Shown: one piece after another, positions 3,227 to 63,672 of the stretch
How the letters are laid out: the number at the start of each line of letters is the position of its first letter
How positions within the stretch are numbered: the first letter of the stretch is position 1
From: Enterobacteria phage vB_EcoM_IME281
DNA length: 64,000 bases
Sequence record: MH051913
Direction: 5' to 3' (one strand)
Program-made: the position numbers and the translations under genes
The notes under the pieces: model-generated
What the model was told of the DNA's origin: nothing
Database searches by the model: none
What the model saw: the letters and a program-made list of their open reading frames with translations, nothing else

Positions 3227-3264
3227 GTGTACAAGGTCTATAGGTGTGATACTATAGACCTATC
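3227..3264 (+). promoter_or_regulatory. early promoter cassette (sigma70-type, PeSL-like)
   Basis: GTGTAC-N17-TG-a-TACTAT then TAGACCTATCAA box; 9-bp inverted repeat AGGTCTATA/TATAGACCT. Confidence 0.6.
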
Positions 3265-3292
3265 AAAACAACAGAGTGAAATGGAGAATAAA

Positions 3293-3508
3293 ATGAAACT
3301 TTCTAACCAAGCAATCAACATGTTAAACGAAGTTCGTGCAGCTGGTGCTAAATGCCTGATGGTTAACACTCGTGACGGTGACCTTCGTCAAGCATTTGGT
3401 GAATTGAAATCTGCTGACCTGGTTAAATGTTCAGTTGGTATTGGTAACGCACTTCGTGTATCCTTATCCCCTAAAGGTAAAATGTACTTTTCAACAAAAA
3501 GTAAGTGA
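3293..3508 (+). CDS. hypothetical protein
   Basis: ORF downstream of early promoter cassette; GGAG SD lies inside the upstream ATG so second ATG preferred. Confidence 0.55.
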   Translation: MKLSNQAINMLNEVRAAGAKCLMVNTRDGDLRQAFGELKSADLVKCSVGIGNALRVSLSPKGKMYFSTKSK

Positions 3509-3518
3509 GGAAAATATT

Positions 3519-4208
3519 ATGAACGGCCCGAAAACTTTTAATTCTCAAGCTCGTGCAGTCGGTGGTTTTGCTCAAGATATCAGTAATGATATGATTAAAA
3601 ATGAGCCTATGTTCTTTAATTGTGATGCTTATTTTGCTCATAAACACGGCGGTCCTATTACTCGTAGCTTTATTGAAAACCTGCCTGAAGATTGGCAATG
3701 TGGCCCTGATATTGTATTTGATTCCCGTGTACACATGTTAATGCCTGGCTGGTACCCTGCAATTCCAGGCTTCCACCATGATGATGTACCACGCCCGGAT
3801 ATTCCGGTCGGTCAACACTTTATTACCGCAGGGCAACCTGATTATGATAATCCTCGTTACCATTCTGAACATATTCTTGGTCTTGTTAACGCTGATGTGT
3901 GTCCTACCCATTTTGCAACCGGAACTGCACAGTTCAGTCGGATTCCTGAAGGCGAACTTATCTATCGCCAGTGGCATAAAGAAGTTCTGGAAAAAATTGA
4001 GTCCAATGAATTAACCAAGTGGGATGCTCCTGACCGCACGTTACTCCAGTTTGATTGGCAGACATGGCATACAGGTTCTCGTGCAGTAAGTAATGGGTGG
4101 CGCTGGTTTGGTCGTGTGTCTCGTAATACAGACCGTGTTAAAAAGATTACAAATGAAATCCGCGTTAATGCTCAAGTATATCTGGAATTCCCTATGGAGG
4201 GCTGGTAA
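3519..4208 (+). CDS. hypothetical protein (229 aa), His/Asp-rich
   Basis: ORF with GAGGAAAATATTATG context; function unknown. Confidence 0.7.
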   Translation: MNGPKTFNSQARAVGGFAQDISNDMIKNEPMFFNCDAYFAHKHGGPITRSFIENLPEDWQCGPDIVFDSRVHMLMPGWYPAIPGFHHDDVPRPDIPVGQHFITAGQPDYDNPRYHSEHILGLVNADVCPTHFATGTAQFSRIPEGELIYRQWHKEVLEKIESNELTKWDAPDRTLLQFDWQTWHTGSRAVSNGWRWFGRVSRNTDRVKKITNEIRVNAQVYLEFPMEGW

Positions 4209-4795
4209 TGGCCCTTTATGAACCTGGTTGTATGGGTATTGATACAAACTTCATCCGTCGGTCGGAAAATGCTGGAATTATTATCCCAAGTGGTGAGACT
4301 ATGATTATTAAAAAGTCCTGGCGAAATATAGATGACGGTGATGAAGGAATTTCAGCCAGTACAATAGATTGGTCAGGTTGTACTGCCGAAATGAAACAGC
4401 TTTTAATTGAGGAATATAAAATGGGCTATATCGTAAACGGCTGGCAAGCGGAACCACATAAAGAACAGACTCCAGACCCATTGATTTGTTATAGCAAAAA
4501 ATACGGCTTCCGTGCATGGAGTGATGAATACGACAAATTGGTGAGTTCTAGATTCTATGTTTGGATGGGTATATTATTTTTCCCACTCCTAGGGTTTTTC
4601 CTGACAACAGATAATGACCTGCCTATTTGTGTATTCGCTTCAGCGATGTCTGCTGCTATCTTAGGTCTTATCGCATCATTTTTATGGACATCGGTTATCG
4701 AAGTACCTTTTCGTATTTCTAAAGTTAAAAAGGTATATGATGATATCACTAAGAAAAATACATTAAACTCTTTTATTAAGGAATGTCGTAAATGA
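4208..4795 (+). CDS. hypothetical membrane protein
   Basis: 195-aa ORF with C-terminal hydrophobic segments; ATGG overlap with upstream stop. Confidence 0.65.
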   Translation: MALYEPGCMGIDTNFIRRSENAGIIIPSGETMIIKKSWRNIDDGDEGISASTIDWSGCTAEMKQLLIEEYKMGYIVNGWQAEPHKEQTPDPLICYSKKYGFRAWSDEYDKLVSSRFYVWMGILFFPLLGFFLTTDNDLPICVFASAMSAAILGLIASFLWTSVIEVPFRISKVKKVYDDITKKNTLNSFIKECRK

Positions 4796-5028
4796 GCATT
4801 GCAATTTATATTAAATCTGAGTCATGTGATTCATATCTATATTCCTATGATACCGGAACATCAGAAGAGAAAATTAAAGAAGACTTAGAAAGCGATATGG
4901 ATATGTTCTGTCCTATTGGTGACTATATGCTTCAAGTGTCTGATAGTGAAAGTCCATCATCAGAAAATAGACTTCAAATTATTATGCAAGATATTTTTAA
5001 ACAATCATGGGAACGAGACGATGGGTAA
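4792..5028 (+). CDS. hypothetical acidic protein
   Basis: 78-aa ORF, overlaps nudE start. Confidence 0.45.
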   Translation: MSIAIYIKSESCDSYLYSYDTGTSEEKIKEDLESDMDMFCPIGDYMLQVSDSESPSSENRLQIIMQDIFKQSWERDDG

Positions 5029-6380: not shown

Positions 6381-6430
6381 GTTTACTTCTCCTGTAGGCA
6401 TGATACTATAGACCTATCAACTACAGGAGA
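6381..6430 (+). promoter_or_regulatory. early promoter cassette (PeSL-like) upstream of denV
   Basis: GTTTAC-N17-TACTAT with TG; inverted repeat CTCCTGTAG...CTACAGGAG places SD in 3' arm. Confidence 0.7.
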
Positions 6431-6438
6431 TTAAAAAA

Positions 6439-6855
6439 ATGACTCGTATCAACCTTACCTTAGTATCTGAATTGGCTGACCAACACTTAATGGCTGAATA
6501 TCGTGAATTACCACGTGTTTTCGGTGCAGTTCGTAAGCATGTTGCTAACGGTAAACGTGTTCGTGATTTTAAAATCAGTCCTACTTTTATCCTTGGCACA
6601 GGCCATGTTACATTCTTTTACGATAAGCTCGAATTTTTACGTAAGCGACAAATTGAGCTTATAGCCGAATGTTTAAAACGTGGTTTTAATATCAAGGATA
6701 CTACGGTCCAGGACATTAGTGATATTCCTCAGGAATTCCGTGGTGATTATGTTCCTCACGAAGCTTCTATCGCTATTTCACAAGCCCGTTTAGACGAAAA
6801 AATTGCACAGCGCCCTACCTGGTACAAACATTATGGTAAGGCTATTTACGCTTAA
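6439..6855 (+). CDS. denV: endonuclease V, pyrimidine dimer DNA glycosylase
   Basis: 138 aa, collinear with T4 endonuclease V ([28 protein letters not shown]...). Confidence 0.95.
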
Positions 6856-6897
6856 TTAAATCCGTGATAGAATACTTCTATCAACTTAAGGAATAAT

Positions 6898-7197
6898 ATG
6901 AAAACTTATCAAGAATTTATTACAGAAGCCAAAGCCCCTAAAGCATTTCAAATTGGAGTCCAAGGCACTTTAGACCAAGAATATGTTGACGCTATTGTAG
7001 CAAGCCTCGGTAAACAAGGTGTACAAGTGGATTTGGTTGATTTTACTAAAGGCAACACTTTTAATATTGTTACATCTAAAGGCTCTTTAGCTAAAGTTAA
7101 AAAGGCCTTTGGTGTAGCCCAAGCATACGAAATCGACCACTCTGAATTAGAAAATAAAGGTCGCCAGAATACAATTAAAGGTTCTGGTTCTTTCTAA
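6898..7197 (+). CDS. internal protein with capsid targeting sequence
   Basis: Begins MKTYQEFITEA (CTS motif); 99 aa. Confidence 0.65.
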   Translation: MKTYQEFITEAKAPKAFQIGVQGTLDQEYVDAIVASLGKQGVQVDLVDFTKGNTFNIVTSKGSLAKVKKAFGVAQAYEIDHSELENKGRQNTIKGSGSF

Positions 7198-8668: not shown

Positions 8669-8718
8669 GTTTACATCTCCTGTAGACGTGGTACTATAGA
8701 CCTATCAACTACAGGAGA
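8669..8718 (+). promoter_or_regulatory. early promoter cassette (PeSL-like) upstream of regB
   Basis: GTTTAC-N18-TACTAT; same CTCCTGTAG/CTACAGGAG inverted repeat as at denV. Confidence 0.7.
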
Positions 8719-8725
8719 TTACAAA

Positions 8726-9184
8726 ATGTCAGAAATTAATTCAGAAGTATTCATCCGCCGCAACAAATTACGTCGTCAGTTCGAAACCGAATTTCGTGAA
8801 CTTAACGCGTCCATCAAAAAAGCCGCCATTAAGAGCGGTGTCCCAGCTTTCTTTATTAAGTACTCTAATCACTTGTTGGACCGTGCTATCCAACGTGAAA
8901 TTGACGAAAAATATGTTTTCTCTTTGTTCAAGAAGCTCCATAACCATGTTAAAGAAATCCATGAATTTTTAATCCAGGAGCCTCTTCCTGACATAGAATC
9001 TGAAATTGTCCCAGGTAAAGTGTATCGTCCACTGCGTCTCGAGATTACTGATAAAACCTTATGGTTGGGTATGACCGTAGATCGTAAACATCCTGATAAA
9101 GGATATTCATTAAAATGTCGTATGGCATTTGTTAACTCTAAACGTTTAGAAGGTAAAACCAGCACGAAAGTAATCTATCTTTAA
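8726..9184 (+). CDS. regB: RegB endoribonuclease (cleaves GGAG in early mRNAs)
   Basis: 152 aa collinear with T4 RegB (EVFIRRNKLRR...HLLDRAIQREIDE...RLEITD); early promoter cassette upstream. Confidence 0.9.
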   Translation: MSEINSEVFIRRNKLRRQFETEFRELNASIKKAAIKSGVPAFFIKYSNHLLDRAIQREIDEKYVFSLFKKLHNHVKEIHEFLIQEPLPDIESEIVPGKVYRPLRLEITDKTLWLGMTVDRKHPDKGYSLKCRMAFVNSKRLEGKTSTKVIYL

Positions 9185-12751: not shown

Positions 12752-12754
12752 TCA

Positions 12755-12784
12755 AAGGTCTCACTTCGGTGGGACCTTTTTTCG
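12755..12784 (+). terminator. intrinsic terminator
   Basis: AAGGTCTCAC-UUCG-GTGGGACCTT then T-run. Confidence 0.7.
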
Positions 12785-12791: not shown

Positions 12792-12845
12792 GTTTACTTC
12801 CTCTAGGAACGTGATACTATAGACCTATCAACTAATGAGGAGAAC
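12792..12845 (+). promoter_or_regulatory. early promoter cassette (PeSL-like)
   Basis: GTTTAC-N17-TACTAT-AGACCTATCAACTAATGAGGAG. Confidence 0.7.
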
Positions 12846-12848
12846 AGT

Positions 12849-13085
12849 ATGAAACTTACAAGTACTACGGTTTCATTGGAATATGAAATCAATAACCGCC
12901 TCCTTGAGATTAAGATATTCGACGACCGAAGTATCTTTGCTGACTACCGAGGGTACAGAATTCGCCTAGAAAAGGACGAGCTCAAGGAACCACGGCTCCT
13001 TAAAGACACATTAAAGGGATGTGGGTGTAAGCTGAAGACCACTCAAGCCCAAGAATTAATTTCTACTATCAACAAATACTGGTGA
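12849..13085 (+). CDS. hypothetical protein
   Basis: ORF downstream of early promoter cassette, GAGGAG SD. Confidence 0.55.
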   Translation: MKLTSTTVSLEYEINNRLLEIKIFDDRSIFADYRGYRIRLEKDELKEPRLLKDTLKGCGCKLKTTQAQELISTINKYW

Positions 13086-15645: not shown

Positions 15646-15834
15646 ATGAAGGTCTTTTTATCATATGGAAGACCCCATAAAACCCGACGTTGGTATCTTG
15701 AAGCTGTCTGTAAAGAAACCGGACGTCGAGTCAATATCAAGTACGTGTGCAAACCTACGCCTAAACAGACAAGACAATTTGTTAACTGGGCTATAAATGA
15801 TATACGCTTCCATAATTTTTGGAGCGCAATTTAG
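15646..15834 (+). CDS. hypothetical small basic protein
   Basis: ORF followed by intrinsic terminator. Confidence 0.4.
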   Translation: MKVFLSYGRPHKTRRWYLEAVCKETGRRVNIKYVCKPTPKQTRQFVNWAINDIRFHNFWSAI

Positions 15835-15856
15835 GAACCTTCGGGTTCCTTTTTTG
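15833..15856 (+). terminator. intrinsic terminator
   Basis: AGGAACC-UUCG-GGTTCCT then TTTTTT. Confidence 0.75.
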
Positions 15857-15874: not shown

Positions 15875-15910
15875 GTTTACACCCTCGTAGAGCATGTTAT
15901 TATGGACCTA
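15875..15910 (+). promoter_or_regulatory. early promoter cassette (PeSL-like)
   Basis: GTTTAC-N17-TATTAT-GGACCTATCAA. Confidence 0.6.
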
Positions 15911-15940
15911 TCAAATCTACTGAGTGAAATGGAGAATATA

Positions 15941-16921
15941 ATGTTAACTATCAAAATCAACAAAGGTATCTATCGCGGTAATGTAATCTCCGGTACGTTC
16001 ATGAGTTCAGGTAAAACCTGGTTCCCTAATAAAATTCATGAATCCGAAGCTCACCTCGGTGATGGTAAGGTATTTGTACAGATTGATGGTGTTGAACGTG
16101 GTGTATGGGTGTTCAAATGTGACGTTGAAATGGAAGGTGCTGAAGCTCCTGCAATGGTTACTGAATCCGCTGAAGAAATGAAACATCGCATCAACAAACG
16201 TTTTAAAGTAATGAACATGATGACTAACGGAATCATCGATGGTAAAATTCGTTCCCTTATCATCTCTGGTGCCGCAGGTATTGGTAAAACTTATTCTTTG
16301 GATAAAGCATTACAGAATGCCCACGAAAATGAAACTATCGAATATAAATCAATCAACGGAAAGATTAGTGGAATCGGTCTTTACGAGCAGCTTTGGAATA
16401 ACCGCGGCCCTAATAGTGTTCTTCTTATCGATGATGTTGATGTATTCTCTGATATGGATATCCTGAACCTGTTAAAAGCAGCATTGGATACCGGTGAAAA
16501 ACGTAAGGTGTGCTGGAGCACTTCAAGTTCTTATCTCGATGATAAAAATATCGATAAAGAATTCGAATACGAAGGCACCATCGTGTTCATCACCAACGTT
16601 GATATTGACCGTGAATTAGAGCGTGGAACTAAACTTGCTCCGCACCTCCAGGCTTTAGTATCTCGTTCAGTTTACTTAGACCTCGGAGTTCACTCTAACG
16701 AAGAGATTATGGTTCGTGTTGAAGACGTTATCCTGTCCACTGATATGATGCAAAATCGAGGTCTGACCGATGCTGAGACTTATCAAGCACTGGCATGGAT
16801 GAAGGCTAATGTATCTCGTCTTCGTAACGTATCATTACGTACAGCTCTTTATCTGGCGGACTTCATTGCCACCGATAAAAATGACTGGAACGAAATTGCT
16901 GAAGTTACACTTCTGAAATAA
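15941..16921 (+). CDS. predicted P-loop ATPase
   Basis: Walker A SGAAGIGKT, Walker B LLIDDVD; early promoter upstream. Confidence 0.6.
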   Translation: MLTIKINKGIYRGNVISGTFMSSGKTWFPNKIHESEAHLGDGKVFVQIDGVERGVWVFKCDVEMEGAEAPAMVTESAEEMKHRINKRFKVMNMMTNGIIDGKIRSLIISGAAGIGKTYSLDKALQNAHENETIEYKSINGKISGIGLYEQLWNNRGPNSVLLIDDVDVFSDMDILNLLKAALDTGEKRKVCWSTSSSYLDDKNIDKEFEYEGTIVFITNVDIDRELERGTKLAPHLQALVSRSVYLDLGVHSNEEIMVRVEDVILSTDMMQNRGLTDAETYQALAWMKANVSRLRNVSLRTALYLADFIATDKNDWNEIAEVTLLK

Positions 16922-17274: not shown

Positions 17275-17323
17275 GTTTACATCTCCAGTAGAAATGATAC
17301 TATAGACCTATCAACTACTGGAG
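17275..17323 (+). promoter_or_regulatory. early promoter cassette (PeSL-like)
   Basis: GTTTAC-N17-TACTAT; inverted repeat CTCCAGTAG/CTACTGGAG (compensatory variant of denV copy). Confidence 0.7.
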
Positions 17324-17329
17324 GTTATC

Positions 17330-17854
17330 ATGAACGCTAAAGATATTTTTTCACTGATTAATTTTAACAATGGTAATTTCAAATCTGAAAAACAAAGCAA
17401 GTTCTTTAACGACGTTGCTTGTGGTAATGAGATTACCGTATCTGGAGGAGAGATTTACAAAAGCCGTTGGAACTGGATTGTTGTCATTGATTCAGTTGGT
17501 ATTGTAGAGCTCTATAAAAACACTAACAAAAAACGTACTCTTCACTGGAGTCGTGAAACCAATCAAGCTTATCAAGCTGAACGTAACAAACGTTTAATGC
17601 CTACCGAATCTGACCTGGCAAACGTTAAATCTGATATCGCTTATTTCGATAATCTGATTGCCGAGGAACAAGCGGTTATTGATAAGTTTGATGAAATCAA
17701 AGCTTGTAAAGAGATTCCTGAATTCATGCGGGAATCAGTAAATGAACAGTACGCCCTCACTTCAGGTCGTATCGAGCAGTACAAATCACAACGAGCTGAA
17801 CGCCAAGCTCTGCTTCAGAAATTTGAAGAGCGTTTAAAGACGGTTCTCGCATAA
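17330..17854 (+). CDS. hypothetical protein
   Basis: 174-aa ORF downstream of early promoter cassette. Confidence 0.6.
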   Translation: MNAKDIFSLINFNNGNFKSEKQSKFFNDVACGNEITVSGGEIYKSRWNWIVVIDSVGIVELYKNTNKKRTLHWSRETNQAYQAERNKRLMPTESDLANVKSDIAYFDNLIAEEQAVIDKFDEIKACKEIPEFMRESVNEQYALTSGRIEQYKSQRAERQALLQKFEERLKTVLA

Positions 17855-47079: not shown

Positions 47080-47083
47080 CAAA

Positions 47084-47401
47084 ATGAAAACTATCGATTG
47101 TAAAGCAGAACATAAAGTGTATTACCACGGAAGTTGTAGTGATGCTAATATTGGTAATATGCTTTGTCCTCCTGAGGAAACAGGAGTTCTGTCTGAAACT
47201 GGTCGTAAGAAAAACCTGAATCGTGTATTCTTTACTGAGGATATTGGTTTGGCTAAGATTTATGCTGGACGAGCTGCTCGTTCAGTGGGAGGAGAACCTC
47301 GTCTTTATCGTGTAATTGCTCCGGTAGATGTGGTTTGTTTAAATGATACTAAAGGCGCTACGGTATATCATGCCGAATGGGCCTTCTGTGAGGAAATCTA
47401 A
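47084..47401 (+). CDS. hypothetical protein with H-G-S motif (possible minimal ART-like fold)
   Basis: ATG at 47084 downstream of early promoter cassette (track start 47072 is TTG); YYHGS...FFTED...AEWAFCEE. Confidence 0.5.
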   Translation: MKTIDCKAEHKVYYHGSCSDANIGNMLCPPEETGVLSETGRKKNLNRVFFTEDIGLAKIYAGRAARSVGGEPRLYRVIAPVDVVCLNDTKGATVYHAEWAFCEEI

Positions 47402-48045: not shown

Positions 48046-48098
48046 GTTTACAACGGTCTATGGTAGTGATACTATAGACCTATCAACTAATGAGGAGT
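48046..48098 (+). promoter_or_regulatory. early promoter cassette (PeSL-like)
   Basis: GTTTAC-N18-TACTAT-AGACCTATCAACTAATGAGGAG. Confidence 0.7.
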
Positions 48099-48103
48099 TA
48101 AAA

Positions 48104-48397
48104 ATGAAAAAGTTATTAATCGCAGCAATCCTTACAGTAGCATCATGTGGCACAGCTCCAGTTACAGCTGGGTTGGATAAAGACCTTTGTGAATGGTCTA
48201 TGACTGCAGACCAAGAATCAGTTGAACATCAGATTTATGCTGATATCATGAACATCACTAAACGTGACCGTCCTGATATGGTTAAAGAAGTATCCGACCA
48301 ATTGGCTTCTAGCGGTGTTATGCAGTATAACTATGTTCTGTACTGTGATGCTAATTTCGATAACAAAAATATCGTTAAAGAGGTGACAGGTGAATAA
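48104..48397 (+). CDS. secreted/lipoprotein, spackle-like by size and position
   Basis: Signal peptide with lipobox-like VASC; 97 aa; lies in the 41-61 interval where T4 sp is. Confidence 0.5.
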   Translation: MKKLLIAAILTVASCGTAPVTAGLDKDLCEWSMTADQESVEHQIYADIMNITKRDRPDMVKEVSDQLASSGVMQYNYVLYCDANFDNKNIVKEVTGE

Positions 48398-51552: not shown

Positions 51553-51557
51553 TTATA

Positions 51558-51581
51558 AGGAACCTTCGGGTTCCTTTTTTG
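51558..51581 (+). terminator. intrinsic terminator after soc
   Basis: AGGAACC-UUCG-GGTTCCT then TTTTTT (same hairpin sequence as at 15833). Confidence 0.75.
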
Positions 51582-51590: not shown

Positions 51591-51620
51591 GTTTACTTTC
51601 TAAGAAGGTTATGTTAAGAT
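51591..51620 (+). promoter_or_regulatory. possible early promoter
   Basis: GTTTAC-N18-TAAGAT with TG. Confidence 0.45.
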
Positions 51621-51648
51621 GGTCTCTTATCTTATAGAGGAGAATGCT

Positions 51649-51858
51649 ATGTTAAATCGTTGGATTAAACCAAATAAAACTTTAGATGAAATTATCGCTA
51701 ATCATGTATTGAAAAAGTACTTCTATACGCCTTGGTATACCGAAGTTATTGTCCATTCATTTATGATGCATGAAGACGGTTCTATCGAATTTAATGCCGA
51801 AATCCGTCACGAGACTGATGATATTGATAAAGTTGAATTTAAACGAGGTTTCCTATGA
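51649..51858 (+). CDS. hypothetical protein
   Basis: ORF from MLNRWIK after AGAGGAGAA SD and early promoter. Confidence 0.5.
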   Translation: MLNRWIKPNKTLDEIIANHVLKKYFYTPWYTEVIVHSFMMHEDGSIEFNAEIRHETDDIDKVEFKRGFL

Positions 51859-53201: not shown

Positions 53202-53253
53202 TTTTACACCTCCTCCCTTCATGTTATAATGACCTCTAAATCACTGGAGGTCA
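53202..53253 (+). promoter_or_regulatory. early promoter with SD-sequestering hairpin upstream of mod-like gene
   Basis: TTTTAC-N17-TATAAT; hairpin TGACCTC...GAGGTCA contains the SD. Confidence 0.6.
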
Positions 53254-53254
53254 T

Positions 53255-53824
53255 ATGAACATCGAACAAAAATGTCTTTATCAAGACCGAATCAATTCCA
53301 AATTTTCAAAATCTGAACAAGCCTTGTTAGAGAAATGTCTGGATGCCAAAAAGGACCCTAACTTCCATTACGACCTTGACAAACTGGTTCGTAAGCATGT
53401 TACTTCGGCCGTTCCCGTAGAGTTGTATCGTGGGATTACCACCAGAGAACTTGAGCAATTAGAGCTCCTTTCAGTAGGATGTCAATGGTCTCCTGGTCGA
53501 GTTACTTCTTTTAGTACACAATACTCTCAGGCTCGTCAGTTCGCAGGGTCATGGGAATATGGAACCAAAACCATTTTAAGTCTCAGGAATGCACCCTTCA
53601 TTTTTGACTACTACAATCATGCTATCGACCTTGTTCTTGCAGGGAATGTAGACGAACTCGAAATAGATGAAACCCGTATTGACCTCTATGATATGGTTGA
53701 AACTGAATGTGAGTTCATGGTCTCTAGTCTATCGCGATTTGAGATTGTGGAAATCGAAACTATCAAAAGAGACCCATATGACATCGAGTACAAAATAATT
53801 CATTTAAAAATGTTATATTTTTAG
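53255..53824 (+). CDS. ADP-ribosyltransferase, ModA/ModB-like
   Basis: R-S-E triad candidates LYRGIT, SFST, ECEFMV; position between soc and dda as T4 modA/modB. Confidence 0.7.
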   Translation: MNIEQKCLYQDRINSKFSKSEQALLEKCLDAKKDPNFHYDLDKLVRKHVTSAVPVELYRGITTRELEQLELLSVGCQWSPGRVTSFSTQYSQARQFAGSWEYGTKTILSLRNAPFIFDYYNHAIDLVLAGNVDELEIDETRIDLYDMVETECEFMVSSLSRFEIVEIETIKRDPYDIEYKIIHLKMLYF

Positions 53825-53875
53825 TTTACAGGCAAGGATGCTTATGTTACTATCTTTCTATCAACTGAGGAGAAT
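53824..53875 (+). promoter_or_regulatory. early promoter cassette (PeSL-like)
   Basis: GTTTAC-N18-TACTAT then TCTATCAACTGAGGAG. Confidence 0.65.
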
Positions 53876-53878
53876 AAT

Positions 53879-54493
53879 ATGTTATATCCAAGCCATAAAT
53901 TAGCAGAATTTATCAACAATGCCAAATGCGATGATTTCCGTGAGAATACTCAGATAGAAATTGATGAGGTGTATTCTGATTTAGAACAGAGCACGCTCTG
54001 GCAGTGTATGGAAAATAAACCTGATTCTATCCAGGAAACTCTGAACAAAATTATTCGTAAGAACCTGACTTCTGTAGTGCCTGATAAGCTCTATCGCGGT
54101 ATATCTAAAAAGACCCTGAAGTATCTAGAGTCCACAATGTGTGTGGGTGCGGTAATTGAATTCGACCGTGTGATGAGCTTCTCTAAAGACTTCAACGTAG
54201 CAAGGAATTTCGCATCTTATAACTTCTACGGCACATTTAATATCTTTTGTATTAATGATGCGCCATTTGTGTACAATTATCAGGAAGAAATCTTTAAAAT
54301 GTTATGTGCTGCGCCCCCTGAAGAGTTCCCAGGCGCATTTCCTGAATCTACACGTGTAGCAAACTTACAATTAATTAATGATGAAGATGAGATGATGTTC
54401 CCTGCGGGAACTACGCTGCGCGTAGACTCTATTGAGAGAAATCCTAAATGGAATAATTACACCATTTGGAATCTTTCCGTTCTTTCTTACTGA
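53879..54493 (+). CDS. ADP-ribosyltransferase, ModA/ModB-like paralog
   Basis: LYRGIS, SFSK, EDEMMF; tandem paralog of the preceding gene. Confidence 0.7.
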   Translation: MLYPSHKLAEFINNAKCDDFRENTQIEIDEVYSDLEQSTLWQCMENKPDSIQETLNKIIRKNLTSVVPDKLYRGISKKTLKYLESTMCVGAVIEFDRVMSFSKDFNVARNFASYNFYGTFNIFCINDAPFVYNYQEEIFKMLCAAPPEEFPGAFPESTRVANLQLINDEDEMMFPAGTTLRVDSIERNPKWNNYTIWNLSVLSY

Positions 54494-54562: not shown

Positions 54563-54600
54563 GTTTACTTTATCAAGCAACATGATACTAGACCTATCAA
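54563..54600 (+). promoter_or_regulatory. early promoter cassette (PeSL-like)
   Basis: GTTTAC-N17-TACTAG-ACCTATCAACTA (one-base deletion relative to consensus). Confidence 0.6.
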
Positions 54601-54629
54601 CTAATCGTCCGTAAGATGAGAAAAATATC

Positions 54630-55379
54630 ATGCCTACTATTAAAACTAACGATGAATTTGAGTTAAAGGTTTACAACCGCCGCAAACACACCAAAGCTTC
54701 TGCTTATAAACGTGGTAAGGACTTCAATCTGTCTAGTAAATATGTTCGTAGACTTCTCGAACAAAAAGTGTGCGCTTATTCAGGCGAGTACTTTGATGAA
54801 AATTCAGTTAATGATAAGATTTCATTTGAACGTTTTAACAACGATATCGGCTATATTGAGGGTAATGTAATCCCAGTTAAAGTTAAGTATAACAGCTTAC
54901 GTGCCGATTTGTCCCTTGATGAACTGAAACGTGCTCAGACTCGTTTAGCAGTTCGTATTTCAGGTAGTTCTAAAATGCCTAATAGTTTTAAAGTTACCCC
55001 TGATAATTATTATAAAATCCGTAAAATCGTTAAAAATATAAAAGATACCCAAAGAGGTCTTAAAAAACGTGAAAAACGTCTTAAAGACCTTATTAAATCA
55101 GGAGCTACTGATAAGACTCCTTCTGTTATCGCAGTTAAGGCCCGTATCCACGGTTCTAATGCTTCAATCGGTACTATGGAAAAAGGTCTTAAATCTTTAA
55201 TTGGTGGACCTGACTGGCGTGTCAAGTTTAAATTGTCTGAAGCAGAAACGCGTTACGATATGTATGATAAAATTATTCAAGGTCTGGAGCGTTTAGAACA
55301 CCTTTCTTTTATTGACAAATTGAAGTTGAAAAAAGGTCTTCCGCTGAATGCTTCAATTTTTTCACTGATTAGAGGTTAA
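54630..55379 (+). CDS. hypothetical basic protein (Srd-like by size and position)
   Basis: 249-aa ORF downstream of early promoter; between mod-like genes and dda. Confidence 0.45.
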   Translation: MPTIKTNDEFELKVYNRRKHTKASAYKRGKDFNLSSKYVRRLLEQKVCAYSGEYFDENSVNDKISFERFNNDIGYIEGNVIPVKVKYNSLRADLSLDELKRAQTRLAVRISGSSKMPNSFKVTPDNYYKIRKIVKNIKDTQRGLKKREKRLKDLIKSGATDKTPSVIAVKARIHGSNASIGTMEKGLKSLIGGPDWRVKFKLSEAETRYDMYDKIIQGLERLEHLSFIDKLKLKKGLPLNASIFSLIRG

Positions 55380-57930: not shown

Positions 57931-57982
57931 GTTTACTTCTCCTCATGACATGATATTATCTACCCTATCAACATGAGGAGAA
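57931..57982 (+). promoter_or_regulatory. early promoter cassette (PeSL-like)
   Basis: GTTTAC-N17-TATTAT; perfect 11-bp inverted repeat TTCTCCTCATG/CATGAGGAGAA. Confidence 0.7.
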
Positions 57983-57986
57983 CAAA

Positions 57987-58496
57987 ATGAAAATTTATCG
58001 AGTTGAGTCATCGTTCAGTATCTTAGATGATGGAAACGCTATCACAATACGACGAGACCTCTGTACCCAAATGACCCCGTATAGAAGTACAACAGACTCA
58101 TGGAGTGAAGGCTGGTTATTAGAAGTAGGTTTAGACAGACCTATTTTTAGACATCATCATAGCATTAATAAAAATATCCCACTACCAAGTCAAGATAAGT
58201 TGCTGGTAGAAAATTCTAATAAAACCATTAGAACTAAGTGGAAACGACCTGATTATGAAGGCTGCGACGATTATATTCCAGGCTGGTTTGTTAACCTCTA
58301 CCATTTTGCTTTTGCCAGTGAGTATGATATGATGCGCTGGTTCACTCGTGAAGAGCGTAAAGAATTATCTTCTAAAGGATTCTATCTTGCTGTTTACGAA
58401 ATACCTGAAGATGAGGTTGTCATTGGTGGCCGCCAAGTAATGTTCCGCAAATCCTATGCCGAACTCGTAGATTTTATTGAATTGAGAACAATATGA
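57987..58496 (+). CDS. hypothetical protein
   Basis: 169-aa ORF downstream of early promoter cassette. Confidence 0.55.
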   Translation: MKIYRVESSFSILDDGNAITIRRDLCTQMTPYRSTTDSWSEGWLLEVGLDRPIFRHHHSINKNIPLPSQDKLLVENSNKTIRTKWKRPDYEGCDDYIPGWFVNLYHFAFASEYDMMRWFTREERKELSSKGFYLAVYEIPEDEVVIGGRQVMFRKSYAELVDFIELRTI

Positions 58497-59043: not shown

Positions 59044-59079
59044 GTTTACTTTATCGAGAGCCATGTTATAATGGCTCTC
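59044..59079 (+). promoter_or_regulatory. early promoter
   Basis: GTTTAC-N17-TATAAT; 9-bp inverted repeat GAGAGCCAT/ATGGCTCTC flanks -10. Confidence 0.6.
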
Positions 59080-59114
59080 ATGGATTATAAACCTTTAACC
59101 AAGAGAGAAAAATT

Positions 59115-59681
59115 ATGATTACTATTTCCGATATCGGCAGTATCGTTCGTGTATCCAAAAAGTCTCGTTCAAAAGCTGCGGGCAGTTTAGTTGAAGTTGT
59201 TAGCATCCAACTTAAAGAAGGTGACAGTGAAGAAAATTATGAAGTAAAAGTTCGTATCATTCCTAAAAATCGCCAGACTGAAACTCAATTCGGTTATGTG
59301 CGTGCTAAATTCTTGGAATCGACTGAATTTACCGGGTACATCGCTCCTGTAGTTGAAGAAGTTGAATCCCATGATGGGTATGTATGTGAAAGCAATGATA
59401 TCCGTGGCGTAGTAGCTCAAGACGTTGAAACTATCGACCAGTCCCATGTTGGCGTTGATTTCAAATGGAAATTAGGTCGAGGAGTGTGTTTTAATACTCC
59501 TAAACCGTTCAAATATGTTGACGAACCTTTTGGTACTTACGAAACCAGTAGCATGTCTGGTTACATCACAGACCAGTGGGTTGAAGGTGGCGTTAAGCTC
59601 TATAACATCGTGTTCCTTGGAACCTTTAAGGTTGTTCCTGAAAGCTTTATTGTTGAATATGCTAACATTCACCGTGCATAA
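59115..59681 (+). CDS. hypothetical protein, paralog pair member B
   Basis: 188-aa ORF; C-terminal ITDQWVEGGVKLYNIVF matches member A. Confidence 0.55.
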   Translation: MITISDIGSIVRVSKKSRSKAAGSLVEVVSIQLKEGDSEENYEVKVRIIPKNRQTETQFGYVRAKFLESTEFTGYIAPVVEEVESHDGYVCESNDIRGVVAQDVETIDQSHVGVDFKWKLGRGVCFNTPKPFKYVDEPFGTYETSSMSGYITDQWVEGGVKLYNIVFLGTFKVVPESFIVEYANIHRA

Positions 59682-59694: not shown

Positions 59695-59745
59695 GTATAC
59701 AATACGGTAGGGTAGTGATACTATTTACCCTATCAACAAATGAGA
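59695..59745 (+). promoter_or_regulatory. early promoter cassette (PeSL-like)
   Basis: GTATAC-N18-TACTAT then TTTACCCTATCAA; inverted repeat TAGGGTA/TACCCTA. Confidence 0.55.
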
Positions 59746-59755
59746 GGAAAATAAA

Positions 59756-59974
59756 ATGGCTAAAGTTACTGTGAACTCGACTCGTGAAGAATTTGAAGAT
59801 GTTCTGTTCAACCCTGATTTAATCGTGGTTCAAAAGGAACATTCTGATACGTTTTCTCATTTATCGTCGGTTTATGTATACGAAAATCAAGGTGATAAAA
59901 ACCCTATCTATGCAGTGTTCCGTGAAATCACTGCTGAAGGCACCGACTTCTGGAAGGAAACTTACAATGCTTAA
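59756..59974 (+). CDS. hypothetical protein
   Basis: 72-aa ORF downstream of early promoter. Confidence 0.5.
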   Translation: MAKVTVNSTREEFEDVLFNPDLIVVQKEHSDTFSHLSSVYVYENQGDKNPIYAVFREITAEGTDFWKETYNA

Positions 59975-60588: not shown

Positions 60589-60849
60589 ATGAAATATGTT
60601 AATCGTTCTATTGCGGCTCTTGTACTAGCAGTTTCGTTGGTTGGTTGTACTGATGCTGATAATGCTGTTAAAGTTTTGAATGCAAACGGGTTCGATCAGG
60701 TCCAAATCACAGGTTATAGCTTGTTTGGATGTTCTGAAGATGACTTCCAACGTACAGGATTCATTGCTGTAGGTCCTACAGGTAAAACTGTTAAGGGTAC
60801 CGTGTGCTCAGGATTACTGTTTAAAAACTCTACTATTCGATTCGAATAA
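60589..60849 (+). CDS. predicted lipoprotein
   Basis: Signal peptide with lipobox LVGC; terminator follows. Confidence 0.55.
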   Translation: MKYVNRSIAALVLAVSLVGCTDADNAVKVLNANGFDQVQITGYSLFGCSEDDFQRTGFIAVGPTGKTVKGTVCSGLLFKNSTIRFE

Positions 60850-60868
60850 GGGCTTCGGCCCTTTTTTT
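60849..60868 (+). terminator. intrinsic terminator
   Basis: GGGC-UUCG-GCCC then TTTTTTT. Confidence 0.7.
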
Positions 60869-60898
60869 GTTTACGCTCCAATAAAGCCATGATATAAT
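60869..60898 (+). promoter_or_regulatory. early promoter upstream of GIY-YIG endonuclease
   Basis: GTTTAC-N18-TATAAT with TG. Confidence 0.6.
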
Positions 60899-60921
60899 CT
60901 TCATAAATTAAAGGAGGATGT

Positions 60922-61599
60922 ATGTTTATAGTTTACTTGACGATTTATTCCGGAGACAAATTACCTCCATTTTATATAGGTTCGACTAGCCTAGAAAAAC
61001 ATTTAAACGGATACCACGGCTCCGTAAAATCTAAAAAGTACCAAGAGATTTACAAGTCTGAATTGGCTGCCCATCCTGAGCTTTTCGATAGTTTGATAGT
61101 TGAAGAATTCGAGACAAGAGAAGAAGCTACTAAAGCGGAGTATAAGTATCAAGTCCTTAATAATGCGGCTAAATCTGATTTATTTTTTAATAGAGCAACT
61201 GCAGCACCTAAAGGATTTTTCGGCTCCGACGTTAGTAAAGAAAACAATCCTTTCTTTAACAAACATCATTCTCATGAAACTATAAAAATCCAATCAGGCC
61301 TTAAATTAGGTGAACTTAACCCTATGTATGGGATTAAACGCCCTGAACATTCCAAAGCAATGGCTAAAGAAAACAACCCTTTCTTTGGTAAGAAACATAC
61401 AGACGAGGCCTTAATCAAATGCGGTCTTAAAAATCGTAAAAGCCCTGTTTGGGAATATGAATCCGCTTTAGAAGATTTATGGTTAGAATTAGATAAACCT
61501 AAACTGGCTAAATTCATGAAAGAAAGTATTAAACGTGGATTTCCTGAAGGGTCCTATAAAAATATTTTAAAACAATTCGAGAGAAAACATAATGATTGA
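60922..61599 (+). CDS. GIY-YIG homing endonuclease (Seg-like) with NUMOD3-type repeats
   Basis: GIY-YIG core VYLTIYSGDKLPPFYIGST; three NP[FM][FY]GK repeats. Confidence 0.85.
   Translation: MFIVYLTIYSGDKLPPFYIGSTSLEKHLNGYHGSVKSKKYQEIYKSELAAHPELFDSLIVEEFETREEATKAEYKYQVLNNAAKSDLFFNRATAAPKGFFGSDVSKENNPFFNKHHSHETIKIQSGLKLGELNPMYGIKRPEHSKAMAKENNPFFGKKHTDEALIKCGLKNRKSPVWEYESALEDLWLELDKPKLAKFMKESIKRGFPEGSYKNILKQFERKHND
60922..61599 (+). mobile_element. free-standing GIY-YIG homing endonuclease gene abutting gene 39
   Basis: Own early promoter; 3' end overlaps start of topoisomerase gene by 8 nt. Confidence 0.65.
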
Positions 61600-63412
61600 T
61601 AATAAAATTGAAATGCTTTCAGATAAGGAACACGTTCTTAAGCGTCCTGGAATGTACATCGGAAGTGTATCATTTGAAGACCATGAACGATTTCTTTTCG
61701 GCGAGTTTACCAAAGTACGGTATGTAGCGGGTGTTCTTAAATTAGTTGATGAAATCATCGATAACTCAGTTGATGAAGCTATTCGTACTAATTTTAAGTT
61801 TGCCAACAAAATTTCAGTAAGCATTGATTTAAGTTCTAATAAGGTTACTGTAGAAGATAATGGCCGTGGTATTCCTCAAGCTCTAGTGGTTACTCCTGAA
61901 GGTGAAGAAATCCCAGGACCCGTCGCGGCTTGGACAAAAACCAAGGCAGGCGGTAACTTTGGTGATGACTCTGAACGTGTTACCGGTGGTCAAAACGGTG
62001 TCGGTTCCAGTTTAACAAATATATTCTCTGTGATGTTTACAGGCACAACTTCTGATGGTAAATCTGAACTTATTGTTAACTGCTCTAATAACGCTGAAAA
62101 CGTTTCTTGGAAATCAAAGCCATCTAAAACTAATGGAACCAAAGTAGAATTTGTACCTGATTTTAGCCACTTTGAAATGAACCAATTTGAAAAAATTTAT
62201 CAAGATATTACCATTGACCGACTTCAAACCTTAGCAGTCATTTATCCTGATATTGAATTTAAATTTAATGGTAAGAAAATCCAAGGGTCGTTTAAAAAAT
62301 ACGCCAAACAGTTCGACGAAGAGTGCATTATCCAAGAACAGGACAATTGTTCGATATCTATAGGACGCTCTCCTGATGGATTCCGACAATTAACGTACGT
62401 GAACAATATTCATACTAAAAACGGTGGTCACCACGTTGAATGTGTTATGGATGATATTTGTGACGAGCTTATCCCACAAATTAAGCGTAAGTTTAAAATT
62501 GAAGTAACCAAAGCCCGTATTAAAGAATGTTTAACGATGCTGATGTTTGTGCGAAGCATGAAAAATATGCGATTCGATTCCCAGACTAAAGAACGTCTAA
62601 CATCGCCGTATGGTGAAATTCGTTCGCATATTCAGTTAGATTCTAAAAAACTAGCTAAATCCATATTAGCTAATGAAGCTGTGTTGATGCCTATTATTGA
62701 GGCTGCATTAGCACGTAAGCTCGCTGCTGAAAAGGCTGCCGAAACAAAAGCTGCTAAGAAAGCTTTGAAAGCCAAGGTCCATAAGCATATTAAAGCCAAT
62801 ATGTATGGCAAAGATGCTGATACGACTTTATTCCTTACGGAAGGTGATTCTGCAATGGGTCCTTTCATTGAAGTTCGTAATAAAGACCTCCAAGGTGGTT
62901 ATCCGTTACGCGGAAAGGTTATGAATACCTGGGGTATGACTGCTGCCGATATCATGAAGAACAAAGAATTGTTTGATATCTGTGCAATCACTGGACTGGT
63001 TATTGGTGAACCTGCAGATAAAACCAACTATCGTAATATCGCTATCATGACTGACGCCGATGTGGATGGTACTGGTTCGATTTATCCTTCGTTATTAGCT
63101 TTCTTTAGTCAGTGGCCGGAATTGTTTGAACAGGGACGAATTCGTTTCTGTAAGACTCCTGTAATCATTGCTCAGGTTGGTAAAGAACAGGAATGGTTCT
63201 ATGATGTACCTAGTTATACCAAAGCTAAGGACTCTCTACCTAAGCATTCTATTCGTTATATTAAAGGACTCGGTTCTCTTGAGAAGGCTGAATACCGTCG
63301 AATGATTCAAGACCCTAAATTCGATGTAGTTCAATTACCTGAAGATTGGAAAGACCAGTTCGAAATGCTCCTTGGAAACGACCCACAGCTGCGTAAGGCT
63401 TGGATGTCATAA
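61592..63412 (+). CDS. 39: DNA topoisomerase II large subunit (gp39 fused with gp60 region; GyrB-like ATPase + TOPRIM)
   Basis: GHKL ATPase motifs (EDNGRGIP, GGQNGVGSS), TOPRIM EGDSA; 606 aa continuous ORF. Confidence 0.93.
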   Translation: MIDNKIEMLSDKEHVLKRPGMYIGSVSFEDHERFLFGEFTKVRYVAGVLKLVDEIIDNSVDEAIRTNFKFANKISVSIDLSSNKVTVEDNGRGIPQALVVTPEGEEIPGPVAAWTKTKAGGNFGDDSERVTGGQNGVGSSLTNIFSVMFTGTTSDGKSELIVNCSNNAENVSWKSKPSKTNGTKVEFVPDFSHFEMNQFEKIYQDITIDRLQTLAVIYPDIEFKFNGKKIQGSFKKYAKQFDEECIIQEQDNCSISIGRSPDGFRQLTYVNNIHTKNGGHHVECVMDDICDELIPQIKRKFKIEVTKARIKECLTMLMFVRSMKNMRFDSQTKERLTSPYGEIRSHIQLDSKKLAKSILANEAVLMPIIEAALARKLAAEKAAETKAAKKALKAKVHKHIKANMYGKDADTTLFLTEGDSAMGPFIEVRNKDLQGGYPLRGKVMNTWGMTAADIMKNKELFDICAITGLVIGEPADKTNYRNIAIMTDADVDGTGSIYPSLLAFFSQWPELFEQGRIRFCKTPVIIAQVGKEQEWFYDVPSYTKAKDSLPKHSIRYIKGLGSLEKAEYRRMIQDPKFDVVQLPEDWKDQFEMLLGNDPQLRKAWMS

Positions 63413-63454
63413 TAAATACGTACGGTACATGAGTACCGTATAAAAGGAGACTTT

Positions 63455-63616
63455 ATGAGAAAGTACTGGGTTACGCTCGTCACAGGTGAATATGGTTATC
63501 TCTGGACAGATACACGTCCTCTTTTTGCCGAGTACGTTACTATCACAGTTGAAACATGGGACGGCGAAGTTTACCAAACCCGTGGTCAAGTTTATAGAGT
63601 CGATTCAAGCAACTAA
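63455..63616 (+). CDS. hypothetical small protein
   Basis: 53-codon ORF with AAGGAG SD, terminator downstream. Confidence 0.45.
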   Translation: MRKYWVTLVTGEYGYLWTDTRPLFAEYVTITVETWDGEVYQTRGQVYRVDSSN

Positions 63617-63620
63617 TTAA

Positions 63621-63638
63621 GGGCCGCAAGGCCCTTTT
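63621..63638 (+). terminator. intrinsic terminator
   Basis: GGGCC-gcaa-GGCCC then TTTT. Confidence 0.65.
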
Positions 63639-63642
63639 CGGG

Positions 63643-63672
63643 GTTTACAACAGATTAAAAGTGTGATACGAT
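63643..63672 (+). promoter_or_regulatory. early promoter
   Basis: GTTTAC-N18-TACGAT with TG. Confidence 0.5.

Follow-up and report, generated by a model that had tools for sequence, protein, structure and literature searches.

Covarying stems that straddle early promoters of the T4-type coliphage vB_EcoM_IME281, a subset of them predicted to mask the Shine–Dalgarno sequence

Introduction

Hairpins that sequester the Shine–Dalgarno (SD) sequence and carry an internal late promoter are known in phage T4 for the genes e, soc, 49 and I-TevI (Uzan & Miller 2010, PMC3014915). The promoter lies in or beside the 5′ arm of these hairpins, so that long transcripts mask the SD or AUG and promoter-proximal transcripts are open; the e hairpin lowers lysozyme synthesis ∼100-fold on early transcripts (PMC3014915). 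These are gp55-dependent late promoters (TATAAATA) and the outcome is late-only translation. The list of such hairpins in that review contains no early-promoter case and mentions no hairpin at regB. Here we describe stems at the early promoters of a 64,000-nucleotide stretch of Enterobacteria phage vB_EcoM_IME281 (sequence record MH051913), the whole of which we call the window. About half of its early-promoter cassettes encode, between the −35 and −10 elements, the 5′ arm of a stem whose 3′ arm lies further downstream and in six copies covers the SD. Compared with e, soc, 49 and I-TevI these cassettes use early sigma-70 promoters of the GTTTAC/TGn/TAYTAT type, and translation would be limited to the first minutes of infection.

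A second group of described elements are the promoter-early stem-loop (PeSL) cassettes of T4-type phages, reported for RB49/phi1 (Arbiol et al. 2010, PMC2839356) and for PST/T4 and nt-1/KVP40 (Comeau et al. 2014, PMC4122927), papers in which JS98 is mentioned only in passing. Their stems were interpreted as terminators or attenuators (PMC2839356, PMC4122927), and five subclasses were distinguished by the place of the stem: in the A/T region upstream, on the −35, in the interval from −35 to −10, on the −10, or in that from −10 to +1 (PMC2839356). The T4 early promoter itself has a consensus of an A-rich UP-like region, a GTTTAC −35, TGn, a TAnnnT −10 and a +1 A (Hinton 2010, PMC2988021; Nolan et al. 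2006, PMC1524935). While these reviews note ‘additional regions of consensus’, they treat the spacer as unstructured and leave complementarity between spacer and leader unmentioned. Outside phages, CT-rich anti-SD insulators have been described in bacterial sigma-54 promoters (Levy et al., bioRxiv 10.1101/086108). In that report, a pyrimidine-rich anti-SD in the promoter, upstream of the start, pairs with the SD of read-through transcripts and so reduces the protein made from them; there the promoter class and organisms are different and the motifs are short and were found with synthetic libraries, whereas the phage stems are 10–15 bp long, covarying and gene-specific. No description of SD-masking hairpins at T4 early promoters was found in the full-text literature searched, which leaves older subscription-journal papers uncovered, so that single-gene precedents are possible. 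Within that literature, an SD-masking hairpin split by the start site of an early promoter is a form new relative to both the late-promoter cases and the PeSLs.

Results and discussion

Early-promoter cassettes of the window

By megablast the window belongs to Dhakavirus, the genus of the JS98-like T4-type coliphages. EcWhh-1 is 97.7% identical to it across 40–64 kb and JS10 and JS98 95%, and the Dhakavirus genomes JS98, JS10, EcWhh-1 and MX01 show 92–98% identity to the window. As the GenBank records run reverse-complement to it, the + strand of the window is the strand on which T4-type early genes are read. The gene order is e.x open reading frames (ORFs), e, denV, regB, tk, the nrdC cluster, 49, 55, 47-46, 45-44-62, 43, uvsX, 41, 61, soc, mrh, modA/B, srd, dda, dexA, motB, cef, 39 and rIIA.1.

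The original prediction had proposed about 20 copies of an early-promoter cassette with the consensus GTTTAC-N17/18-TG-n-TACTAT, a conserved box and a GAGGAG SD. Taken literally the pattern has no match in the window, because N17/18 is the entire spacer, TGn included; rewritten as GTTTAC-N14-16-TGN-TAYTAT it has 9 matches against 0.01 expected. A relaxed scan, a search for the box and a position weight matrix built on the −35 block and TGn/−10 only (the downstream box being ignored) gave 23 intergenic cassettes. The + strand holds every one of them, and an SD and an ATG-initiated ORF lie downstream of each, while a scan of the − strand with the same matrix returned two weak, non-genic matches. 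The −35 elements start at 1939, 3227, 6381, 6844, 8669, 12792, 15875, 17275, 19948, 24556, 25677, 38707, 47031, 48046, 51591, 53202, 53824, 54563, 57931, 59044, 59695, 60869 and 63643, and we refer to each cassette by this position. All except one lie within 3227–63672, a span whose ends are its first −35 and last −10; the copy at 24556 had been missed.

TGn is present in 20 of the 23 cassettes and the upstream flanks are visibly A-rich. The predicted box, AGACCTATCAAC, is indeed conserved downstream of the −10, with seven exact matches, and 14 at up to two mismatches against 4.6 expected. Its core ATCAAC starts 7–8 nt past the −10 in 14 of 23 cassettes, a placement that identifies the box as discriminator, +1 and initial transcribed sequence; the motif CTATCAAC likewise follows many T4 early promoters. 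GAGGAG holds as the SD of eight cassettes only, the others having GGAG, AGGA or GAGG. In full, a cassette consists of A-rich upstream sequence, the −35 GTTTAC, TGn TAYTAT as extended −10, a discriminator rich in pyrimidines, a +1 A and an AUCAAC leader, with SD and ATG 20–40 nt past the predicted +1. Judged by this sequence, the cassettes are sigma-70-type early promoters of a T-even-type phage. The conserved AUCAAC start with +1 A in 14 of the 23 cassettes (e.g. 6416–6421, 8704–8709 and 17310–17315) is shared with many T4 early promoters, and a 2024–26 preprint reports that T4 transcripts with +1A, those of modA/modB among them, are capped with nicotinamide adenine dinucleotide (NAD).

Only 30 stretches with an exact match to TACTATAGACCTATCAAC came from IMG/VR, apparently a few ∼155–172 kb JS98-like genomes and short metagenome contigs. 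These are too few for large-scale statistics, so we compared JS98, EcWhh-1, MX01, T4, RB69 and eleven regB loci instead. Rfam covariance models at their gathering score had no match in the whole window, and a tRNA search of it gave none.

Two classes of straddling stem

Around 11 of the 23 cassettes contain a strong stem that straddles promoter elements, and ∼8 contain no stem. The arms quoted in the original prediction were right to within 2 nt: CTCCTGTAG lies at 6389 and 8677 (6388 and 8675 had been given), CTACAGGAG at 6421 and 8709 (6421 and 8708 given), and CTCCAGTAG/CTACTGGAG at 17283/17315 and TTCTCCTCATG/CATGAGGAGAA at 57937/57972 are exactly as placed. That the 3′ arm lies over the SD is true of six strong and ∼4 weak copies; five further strong stems leave the SD free.

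In the six strong SD-masking cassettes (class A, with one variant A′) the 5′ arm is an anti-SD YTCTCC followed by 4–9 variable nt and the 3′ arm, at about +6 to +16, is the GGAG SD with its flanks. The stems are 10–15 bp long and enclose loops of 22–25 nt. At denV (6381..6441; −10 at 6404–6409, predicted +1 A at 6416, ATG 6439) the spacer arm TCTCCTGTAG (6388–6397) pairs with CTACAGGAGA (6421–6430) over the SD. The regB cassette (8669..8728; −10 8692–8697, predicted +1 8704, ATG 8726) pairs ATCTCCTGTAG (8675–8685) with CTACAGGAGAT (8709–8719), that of nrdC.8 (17275..17332; −10 17298–17303, predicted +1 17310, ATG 17330) pairs ATCTCCAGTAG (17281–17291) with CTACTGGAGGT (17315–17325), and that of motB.2 (57931..57989; −10 57954–57959, predicted +1 57967, ATG 57987) pairs TTCTCCTCATG (57937–57947) with CATGAGGAGAA (57972–57982). 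Upstream of the 55.6 homologue (24556..24616; −10 TATAGT at 24579–24584, ATG 24614) the arms TCTCCTCA (24566–24573) and TGAGGAGA (24601–24608) extend to a stem of ∼12 bp with one mismatch. The A′ cassette of modB (53202..53257) takes its 5′ arm ATGACCTCTA (53229–53238) from the end of the −10 and the discriminator, and its 3′ arm TGGAGGTCAT (53245–53254) covers the SD right up to the ATG at 53255; the modB spacer also has CCTCC.

Read-through RNA of these six cassettes has predicted folding energies of −18.1 to −21.6 kcal/mol with z-scores of −3.1 to −5.8, while RNA starting at the predicted +1 reaches only 0 to −2.3 kcal/mol (z about 0). The individual values for read-through and local RNA are −18.1 (z −3.4) and −1.8 for denV, −18.3 (z −3.1) and −1.4 for regB, −19.5 (z −4.2) and −1.0 for nrdC.8, −21.6 (z −5.8) and −2.3 for the 55.6 homologue, −18.7 (z −5.1) and 0 for modB, and −19.4 (z −5.8) and 0 for motB.2. 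By promoter geometry the class A 5′ arm is upstream of every start site possible for its −10, so transcripts from the local promoter cannot contain it, in agreement with the original proposal that such transcripts would lack the 5′ arm and be translatable.

Class B comprises five stems in which the 5′ arm is again in the spacer, the 3′ arm consists of the 3′ half of the −10 and the discriminator, and the stem ends before the start site, leaving the SD free. In the cassette at 3227..3295 AGGTCTATAG (3234–3243) and CTATAGACCT (3252–3261) straddle the −10 at 3250–3255 (−15.4 kcal/mol, z −2.8; likely start ATG 3293 after GGAG), and at 55.2 (25677..25749) TGGGACCA (25690–25697) pairs with TGGTCCTA (25706–25713) around the −10. 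The sp cassette (48046..48106) pairs GGTCTATGGTA (48055–48065) with TACTATAGACC (48070–48080), including one G·U (−16.0 kcal/mol, z −3.0), and the motB cassette (59044..59117) has GAGAGCCAT (59056–59064) and ATGGCTCTC (59071–59079), overlapping the −10 (−19.9 kcal/mol, z −4.1). At cef (59695..59758) GGTAGGGTAG (59706–59715) pairs with TTACCCTATC (59725–59734) at −13.5 kcal/mol, and the altered box is matched by a change in the spacer.

Arms covary and fold better in the sense strand

The complementarity of the arms is specific to each copy. The mean energy of the cognate spacer–leader duplex is −9.6 kcal/mol, compared with −6.8 (standard deviation 0.45) after shuffling the leaders between cassettes, an energy as low as the cognate one being reached in none of 200,000 permutations (p = 5e-6). 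The outcome is unchanged when arms may overlap the −10, and the signal stems from ∼11 copies. Nineteen early-type promoters in 1–80 kb of T4 behave in the same way in the permutation test (−10.4 versus −6.4, p < 1e-5). Anti-SD tetramers (CTCC, CCTC or TCCT) occur in 10 of the 23 spacers of the window, a six-fold enrichment over the 1.7 expected.

Covariation was scored on 21 class A arm pairs from nine genera or lineages, aligned in a gapless best-run register. The score reaches 0.475; shuffling lowers it to 0.208 ± 0.021, with none of 500 shuffles as high, and sliding the partners leaves at most 0.176. On both sides 75 cells are changed, against 34.8. Stem positions 7–11 each use four to five Watson–Crick pair types, and within the helix it is the pairs with the SD that are kept best. 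The arms therefore covary beyond what conservation of promoter and SD would give, as had been suggested. Among 88 distinct cassettes compared from Dhakavirus loci, class A arm pairs include CTCCTGTAG/CTACAGGAG, CTCCAGTAG/CTACTGGAG, CTCCTCATG/CATGAGGAG and CTCCATTAG/CTAATGGAG. Class B pairs include GGTCTATGGTA/TACTATAGACC, AAGGCTATGGTA/TACTATAGCCTT, TTTGGTACAGGT/ACCTGTACCAAA, GGGATAAT/ATTATCCC, GGTAGGGTA/TACCCTATC and GAGAGCCAT/ATGGCTCTC, and in several class B copies the ‘conserved box’ is altered together with the spacer.

The strand on which the structure is selected can be read from mismatched pairs. In 46 distinct helices, found with a rule that treats all non-Watson–Crick pairs alike, interior G·U pairs outnumber A·C 14 to 1 (p = 0.001), and over 78 cassettes the mean minimum free energy is −15.8 kcal/mol in sense and −14.3 kcal/mol in antisense (Wilcoxon p = 1e-4). 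The G·U excess and the better sense folding, together with the diverse arms and the 22–25 nt loops, argue for a structure on the mRNA-sense strand and not for an operator or cruciform. Selection at the RNA level, part of the original prediction, is likewise supported by the recurrence of stems with different sequences in T4, RB69 and other genera.

The same genes carry different stems in other phages

The comparison took in the sequence upstream of regB in eleven other phages, and 76–80 kb of homologous sequence from T4 and from RB69. An SD-masking straddling hairpin is found at regB in Tequatrovirus, Mosigvirus, Winklervirus, Gelderlandvirus and Kagamiyamavirus, with distal stems unrelated in sequence, and the design is present at this gene in at least seven genera. 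The regB arms are CTCCTGTAG/CTACAGGAG in Dhakavirus, TTTTCCTCTTGACTG/CAGTTAAGAGGAGAA in T4, TTCTCCTCTAGTTG/CAACTAGAGGAGAA in RB69, ATCCTCATTTG/CAAATGAGGAT in Winklervirus and TTTCTCCTCTTTATG/CATAAAGAGGAGAAA in Gelderlandvirus. Gaprivervirus has the A′ form, Jiaodavirus and SonariX have shorter stems of 5–7 bp nested around a class B stem, and in Marfavirus the stem is of class B. At regB Krischvirus lacks a promoter, and nothing clear was seen there in Aeromonas phage Asfd_1.

Across Dhakavirus, T4 and RB69 the class is gene-specific for 14 of the 15 genes compared. Class A is kept at denV, regB and motB.2, class A′ at modB, and class B at motB, 55.2, sp and cef, while modA, srd, imm and nrdC.10 have no straddling stem in any of the three. 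The motB.2 arms are TTCTCCTCATG/CATGAGGAGAA in Dhakavirus, TCCTCGGTTAG/CTACTGAGGA in T4 and TTCTCCTCTGGTT/AACCAGAGGAGAA in RB69. At denV Dhakavirus and T4 both have CTCCTGTAG/CTACAGGAG, RB69 has TTCCTCCAAG/CTTGGAGGAA and MX01 GTGTTCTC/GAGAACAC.

Two observations concern the denV cassette in particular. In MX01 ipII and ipIII (1067 bp) are inserted before denV, with the breakpoint at window 6393–6436, and the replacement cassette masks the denV SD again with the new stem GTGTTCTC/GAGAACAC. The T4 denV cassette (T4 coordinate 65355) shares the CTCCTGTAG/CTACAGGAG arms, the −10 and the AGACCTATCAAC box with window 6381–6441 and has few spacer and leader differences, though the genera otherwise differ considerably; this may reflect strong constraint or lateral exchange of the cassette.

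Strong stems are absent behind terminators

Six cassettes (12792, 15875, 47031, 51591, 60869 and 63643) have a tetraloop hairpin and T run directly upstream of the −35. None of them has a strong straddling stem, compared with 11 of the 17 others (Fisher p = 0.014). A pooled automated count over Dhakavirus, T4 and RB69 gives stems in 0 of 7 versus 30 of 50 (p = 0.003), in a pipeline that misses cassettes with an internal ATG in the leader, so that the curated counts of the window are preferred. At 15875, 51591 and 63643 the weak stems lack conservation: in orthologues the spacer changes and the leader does not. The stems thus occur where read-through is expected.

A proposed function for the class A hairpins and its alternatives

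The analysis shows that the arms match copy by copy and covary, that they favour the sense strand, how they lie within the promoter and how stably they are predicted to fold, that the design is kept across genera, and that stems and terminators complement each other in distribution. The start-site positions, folding in vivo and the effects on translation and RegB in the following model are inferred. The spacer between −35 and −10 is free of promoter constraint and in about half of the copies encodes the 5′ arm of an RNA hairpin. With the start site between the arms, RNA from the cassette's own promoter would lack the 5′ arm and have an open leader, while read-through RNA from upstream would have both arms and fold. 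In class A read-through RNA the SD would be locked in a helix of −18 to −22 kcal/mol, at modB up to the AUG, preventing 30S binding and probably also cutting by RegB/S1 at GGAG. Class A genes would then be translated, and inactivated by RegB, only as promoter-proximal immediate-early messages, and longer early or middle transcripts would pass them silently. A cassette with a terminator directly upstream would have no need of an SD-masking stem. We have moderate confidence that class A hairpins insulate their genes from translation on read-through RNA in this manner, probably alongside a shielding of GGAG from RegB on the same RNA.

The proposed shielding follows from what is known of RegB: secondary structure protects GGAG from the enzyme, most middle and all late GGAG-bearing mRNAs are resistant to it, the early promoter of regB is off at 2–3 min with expression limited to the first minutes, and RegB cuts its own SD (PMC3014915). 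The leaders of several class A cassettes fit GGAGRAYARAA, the consensus of strong RegB/S1 sites (PMC3014915).

Several points weigh against the translational reading. Only 6 of 23 cassettes mask the SD strongly, and five equally well-supported class B stems leave it untouched, so that SD masking cannot explain the whole family. Relatives switch class (nrdC.8, of class A in Dhakavirus and T4, has a class B stem in RB69, as regB has in Marfavirus, and A is nested around B in Jiaodavirus and SonariX), which hints at a shared function other than SD masking. Disrupting changes occur in orthologues, such as a U·C mismatch in JS98 nrdC.8 and an A·C in MX01 motB.2, and the terminator and stem counts are small. 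In the covariation analysis the register was picked per sequence for maximal pairing in a set pre-selected as class A, which inflates the percentage paired and leaves pair types and two-sided changes unaffected.

The main rival, left standing by the occasional switches between A and B, is that both classes are generic intercistronic hairpins of read-through RNA, acting as attenuators or terminators or as 3′-end stabilisers after cutting by RegB or RNase E/G, with the masking of the SD incidental because a compact intergenic region offers no unconstrained sequence other than spacer and leader. In its favour, covariation is as strong in class B as in class A, class B stems too carry sense-strand G·U pairs, the two classes interchange or nest at the same gene in some genera, and a PeSL stem of RB49 cut downstream lacZ expression like a strong terminator (PMC2839356). 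The mutual exclusion of stems and upstream terminators fits a terminator-like role as well. However, no straddling stem of either class is followed by a U tract and the terminator scan calls none of them, in contrast to the six true terminators it does call, so that they lack the make-up of intrinsic terminators. The gene-specificity of the classes also speaks against incidental masking, with denV, regB, motB.2 and modB keeping it while the stem sequences change wholly, as do the enrichment of anti-SD motifs in spacers and the conservation of the SD pairs above all others in the helix. On this balance we regard a purely generic role as rather unlikely. Class B stems have the same read-through-only geometry with a free SD, and could be attenuators, 3′-end stabilisers or have some other role.

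It is less probable still, though compatible with translational insulation since one helix does both, that class A stems primarily guard intergenic GGAG from RegB/S1 on long transcripts, keeping polycistronic messages intact, with translation control secondary. Every class A SD is GGAG, leaders fitting the consensus above include GGAGAACAAAA at 57976 and 47073, regB is the most consistently masked gene, and the protection by structure and resistance of later messages noted above are as this would predict. Yet many cassettes with a GGAG SD have no stem over it (among them 12792, 19948, 48046 and 53824), and A′ stems reach the AUG, which RegB shielding does not need.

Action at the DNA level, as operators for dimeric proteins, promoter-melting cruciforms or recombination substrates (PeSL mini-circles or endonuclease VII targets), would account for the perfect or near-perfect palindromic arms flanking the −10, for a hybrid cassette in JS98 that shows exchange in the conserved core, and for several indel breakpoints inside cassettes. 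It appears very improbable: the arms differ completely between copies and genera where a protein site would be conserved, selection on duplex or cruciform would be symmetric rather than yield 14 G·U to one A·C and better sense folding, the class A loops are unfavourable for cruciform extrusion, and cassettes show no clear enrichment at indel junctions. A cruciform or protein operator was rejected on the first two of these grounds, arm diversity and the G·U/A·C asymmetry. Equally hard to credit is translational coupling, in which ribosomes at the upstream stop would melt the outer anti-SD end of the hairpin and allow initiation on read-through RNA only where the upstream ORF is itself translated, for although the anti-SD does lie at the 5′ outer end of the stem with upstream stop codons only 8–14 nt before it, a stop codon in the A site puts the first anti-SD base about +14 to +20 from the P site while the ribosomal helicase acts at about +11, so that the stems should stay closed, and coupling would make an internal promoter unnecessary.

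Returning to translational insulation, a wider form of it is that T-even phages including T4 have a general code of start-site-split anti-SD hairpins at early promoters, by which regB, denV, motB.2, modB and often nrdC.8 are translatable and RegB-cleavable only on own-promoter RNA, and silent and RegB-resistant on long early and middle transcripts. We put this forward tentatively, with less confidence than the insulation of individual class A genes. T4 is a founding model of gene regulation, and its reviews give promoter-split SD-masking hairpins for late promoters only (e, soc, 49 and I-TevI). The early-promoter hairpin described here shows covarying conservation in several genera, at regB, denV, motB.2 and modB. 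If the model is correct it would add an RNA-level layer to the early-to-middle switch, limiting toxic early enzymes such as the RegB nuclease and the ModB ADP-ribosyltransferase to a short burst despite continued upstream transcription, and giving a structural reason for the abrupt stop of class A protein synthesis when early promoters shut off. It would also suggest why RegB tells early from middle messages, the immunity of GGAG on middle and late transcripts having long been noted. For annotation, promoter spacers in phages can hold RNA-structure information, and in phage engineering an exchange of cassettes can break matched arms, as in JS98 nrdC.8.

Relation to PeSL cassettes and to gene shuffling

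The resemblance to PeSLs that had been proposed holds for part of the family. Like PeSLs, the cassettes are intergenic modules of ∼60–100 bp, present in repeated copies, in which A/T-rich sequence leads into a strong early promoter of sigma-70 type and a stem-loop, SD and start codon complete the unit; the composite of promoter, stable stem-loop and SD/start is found in the 11 stem and 6 terminator-hairpin cassettes. Class B stems fit two published subclasses, ‘between −35 and −10’ and ‘overlapping −10’; the six copies with terminator and promoter fit the PST/T4 type, whose stem immediately precedes the promoter; and some indel breakpoints and one hybrid cassette fall inside modules. By contrast, the class A 3′ arm lies downstream of the start site on the SD, which none of the five subclasses has; the straddling stems of the window also differ in having no U tracts, and its cassettes in showing no clear enrichment at indel junctions.

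The idea that shuffled accessory genes have the cassettes at their boundaries is weak. Some 31 indel or replacement loci emerge when the window is aligned with JS98, EcWhh-1 and MX01, and 8 of these adjoin a cassette; with a cassette on ∼16% of ∼135 gene junctions, ∼22% would be expected among indel loci. Cassettes thus show no clear enrichment at indel boundaries, occurring there at about the chance rate for gene junctions. The adjoining events are at 6393–6436, 8661, 12833–12854, 15632–15860 (counted twice, as a replacement versus JS98/EcWhh-1 and a deletion in MX01), 47584/47941–48036, 53199–53203 and 60873–61581. The last is a 707-bp insertion relative to JS98 and MX01 that comprises a GIY-YIG/NUMOD3 (seg-type) homing endonuclease (ORF 60922–61599) directly behind a terminator and early-promoter cassette.

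Judging from its sequence, exchange within cassettes does occur in JS98 nrdC.8, the orthologue of 17275. This is a hybrid, with the 5′ arm CTCCATTAG of another cassette type and the 3′ arm CTACTGGAG, and looks like a crossover in the conserved TGATACTATAGACCTATCAACTA core; its helix is weakened from −20.1 to −13.9 kcal/mol.

Remaining cassettes and other observations

Among cassettes lacking a strong stem, the weak copy at 1939..1998, the one outside 3227–63672, has an ATGTAC −35, a TACTAT −10 at 1963–1968, a GAGGAG SD and ATG 1996, and no significant stem. The cassette before the orf112 homologue (6844..6900; ATTTAC/TAGAAT) has only a short local stem of 7–8 bp around the −10, that of nrdC.4 (19948..20008) has a TATAAT −10 without TGn and no significant straddling stem, and that of modA (53824..53881) no significant stem. 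At imm (38707..38769) there is a weak interrupted pairing of CCACATG with CATGAGG, which in EcWhh-1 shows a two-sided change and a bulge. The srd cassette (54563..54632) has no stem, and its −10 reads TACT-AGACC owing to a 2-bp deletion. As orthologues have an intact TACTAT (TACTATAGACC in EcWhh-1 and JS98), the deletion may be a weakened promoter or a sequencing error in the IME281 genome.

The terminators, all on the + strand, precede their cassettes as follows. A canonical intrinsic terminator with an 11-bp stem, UUCG loop and T run (12754..12779) stands directly upstream of the cassette at 12792..12851, which has weak anti-SD pairing only (TCCTC at 12799–12803 with GAGGA at 12837–12841) and whose leader is the breakpoint of a 222-bp indel relative to EcWhh-1. 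Canonical terminators at 15833..15850, 47001..47018, 51557..51576 and 60848..60863 lie upstream, respectively, of the nrdC.10 cassette (15875..15943, without a conserved stem), the cassette of the orf34 homologue upstream of dmd (47031..47086, with only a 5-bp TCTCC/GGAGA pairing), the mrh.2 cassette (51591..51651, without a conserved straddling stem) and the cassette at 60869..60924, which drives the inserted homing-endonuclease ORF and has no strong stem. A terminator-like hairpin GGGCCGCAAGGCCC followed by TTTT (63621..63634) precedes the stemless cassette of a Bp7-like ORF (63643..63693). The five canonical terminators share a near-identical design, AAGGNNCC-UUCG-GGNNCCUU and then a T run, a type that T4 and RB69 have as well, and these terminators may form another family of repeated cassettes.

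A late-promoter-split SD hairpin is present at gene e of the window (ORF 5501–5995), where ∼5471–5503 contains a TATAAATA promoter and then AAUACCUCCU...AGGAGGUAUU masking the SD; the 96-nt segment with this hairpin folds at −25.1 kcal/mol. Finally, a − strand ORF (31586–32323) in a region otherwise read from the + strand lies in a 774–788-bp insertion relative to JS98 and EcWhh-1, and its only Pfam matches are sub-threshold ones to Zn-ribbon and Lar-like families.

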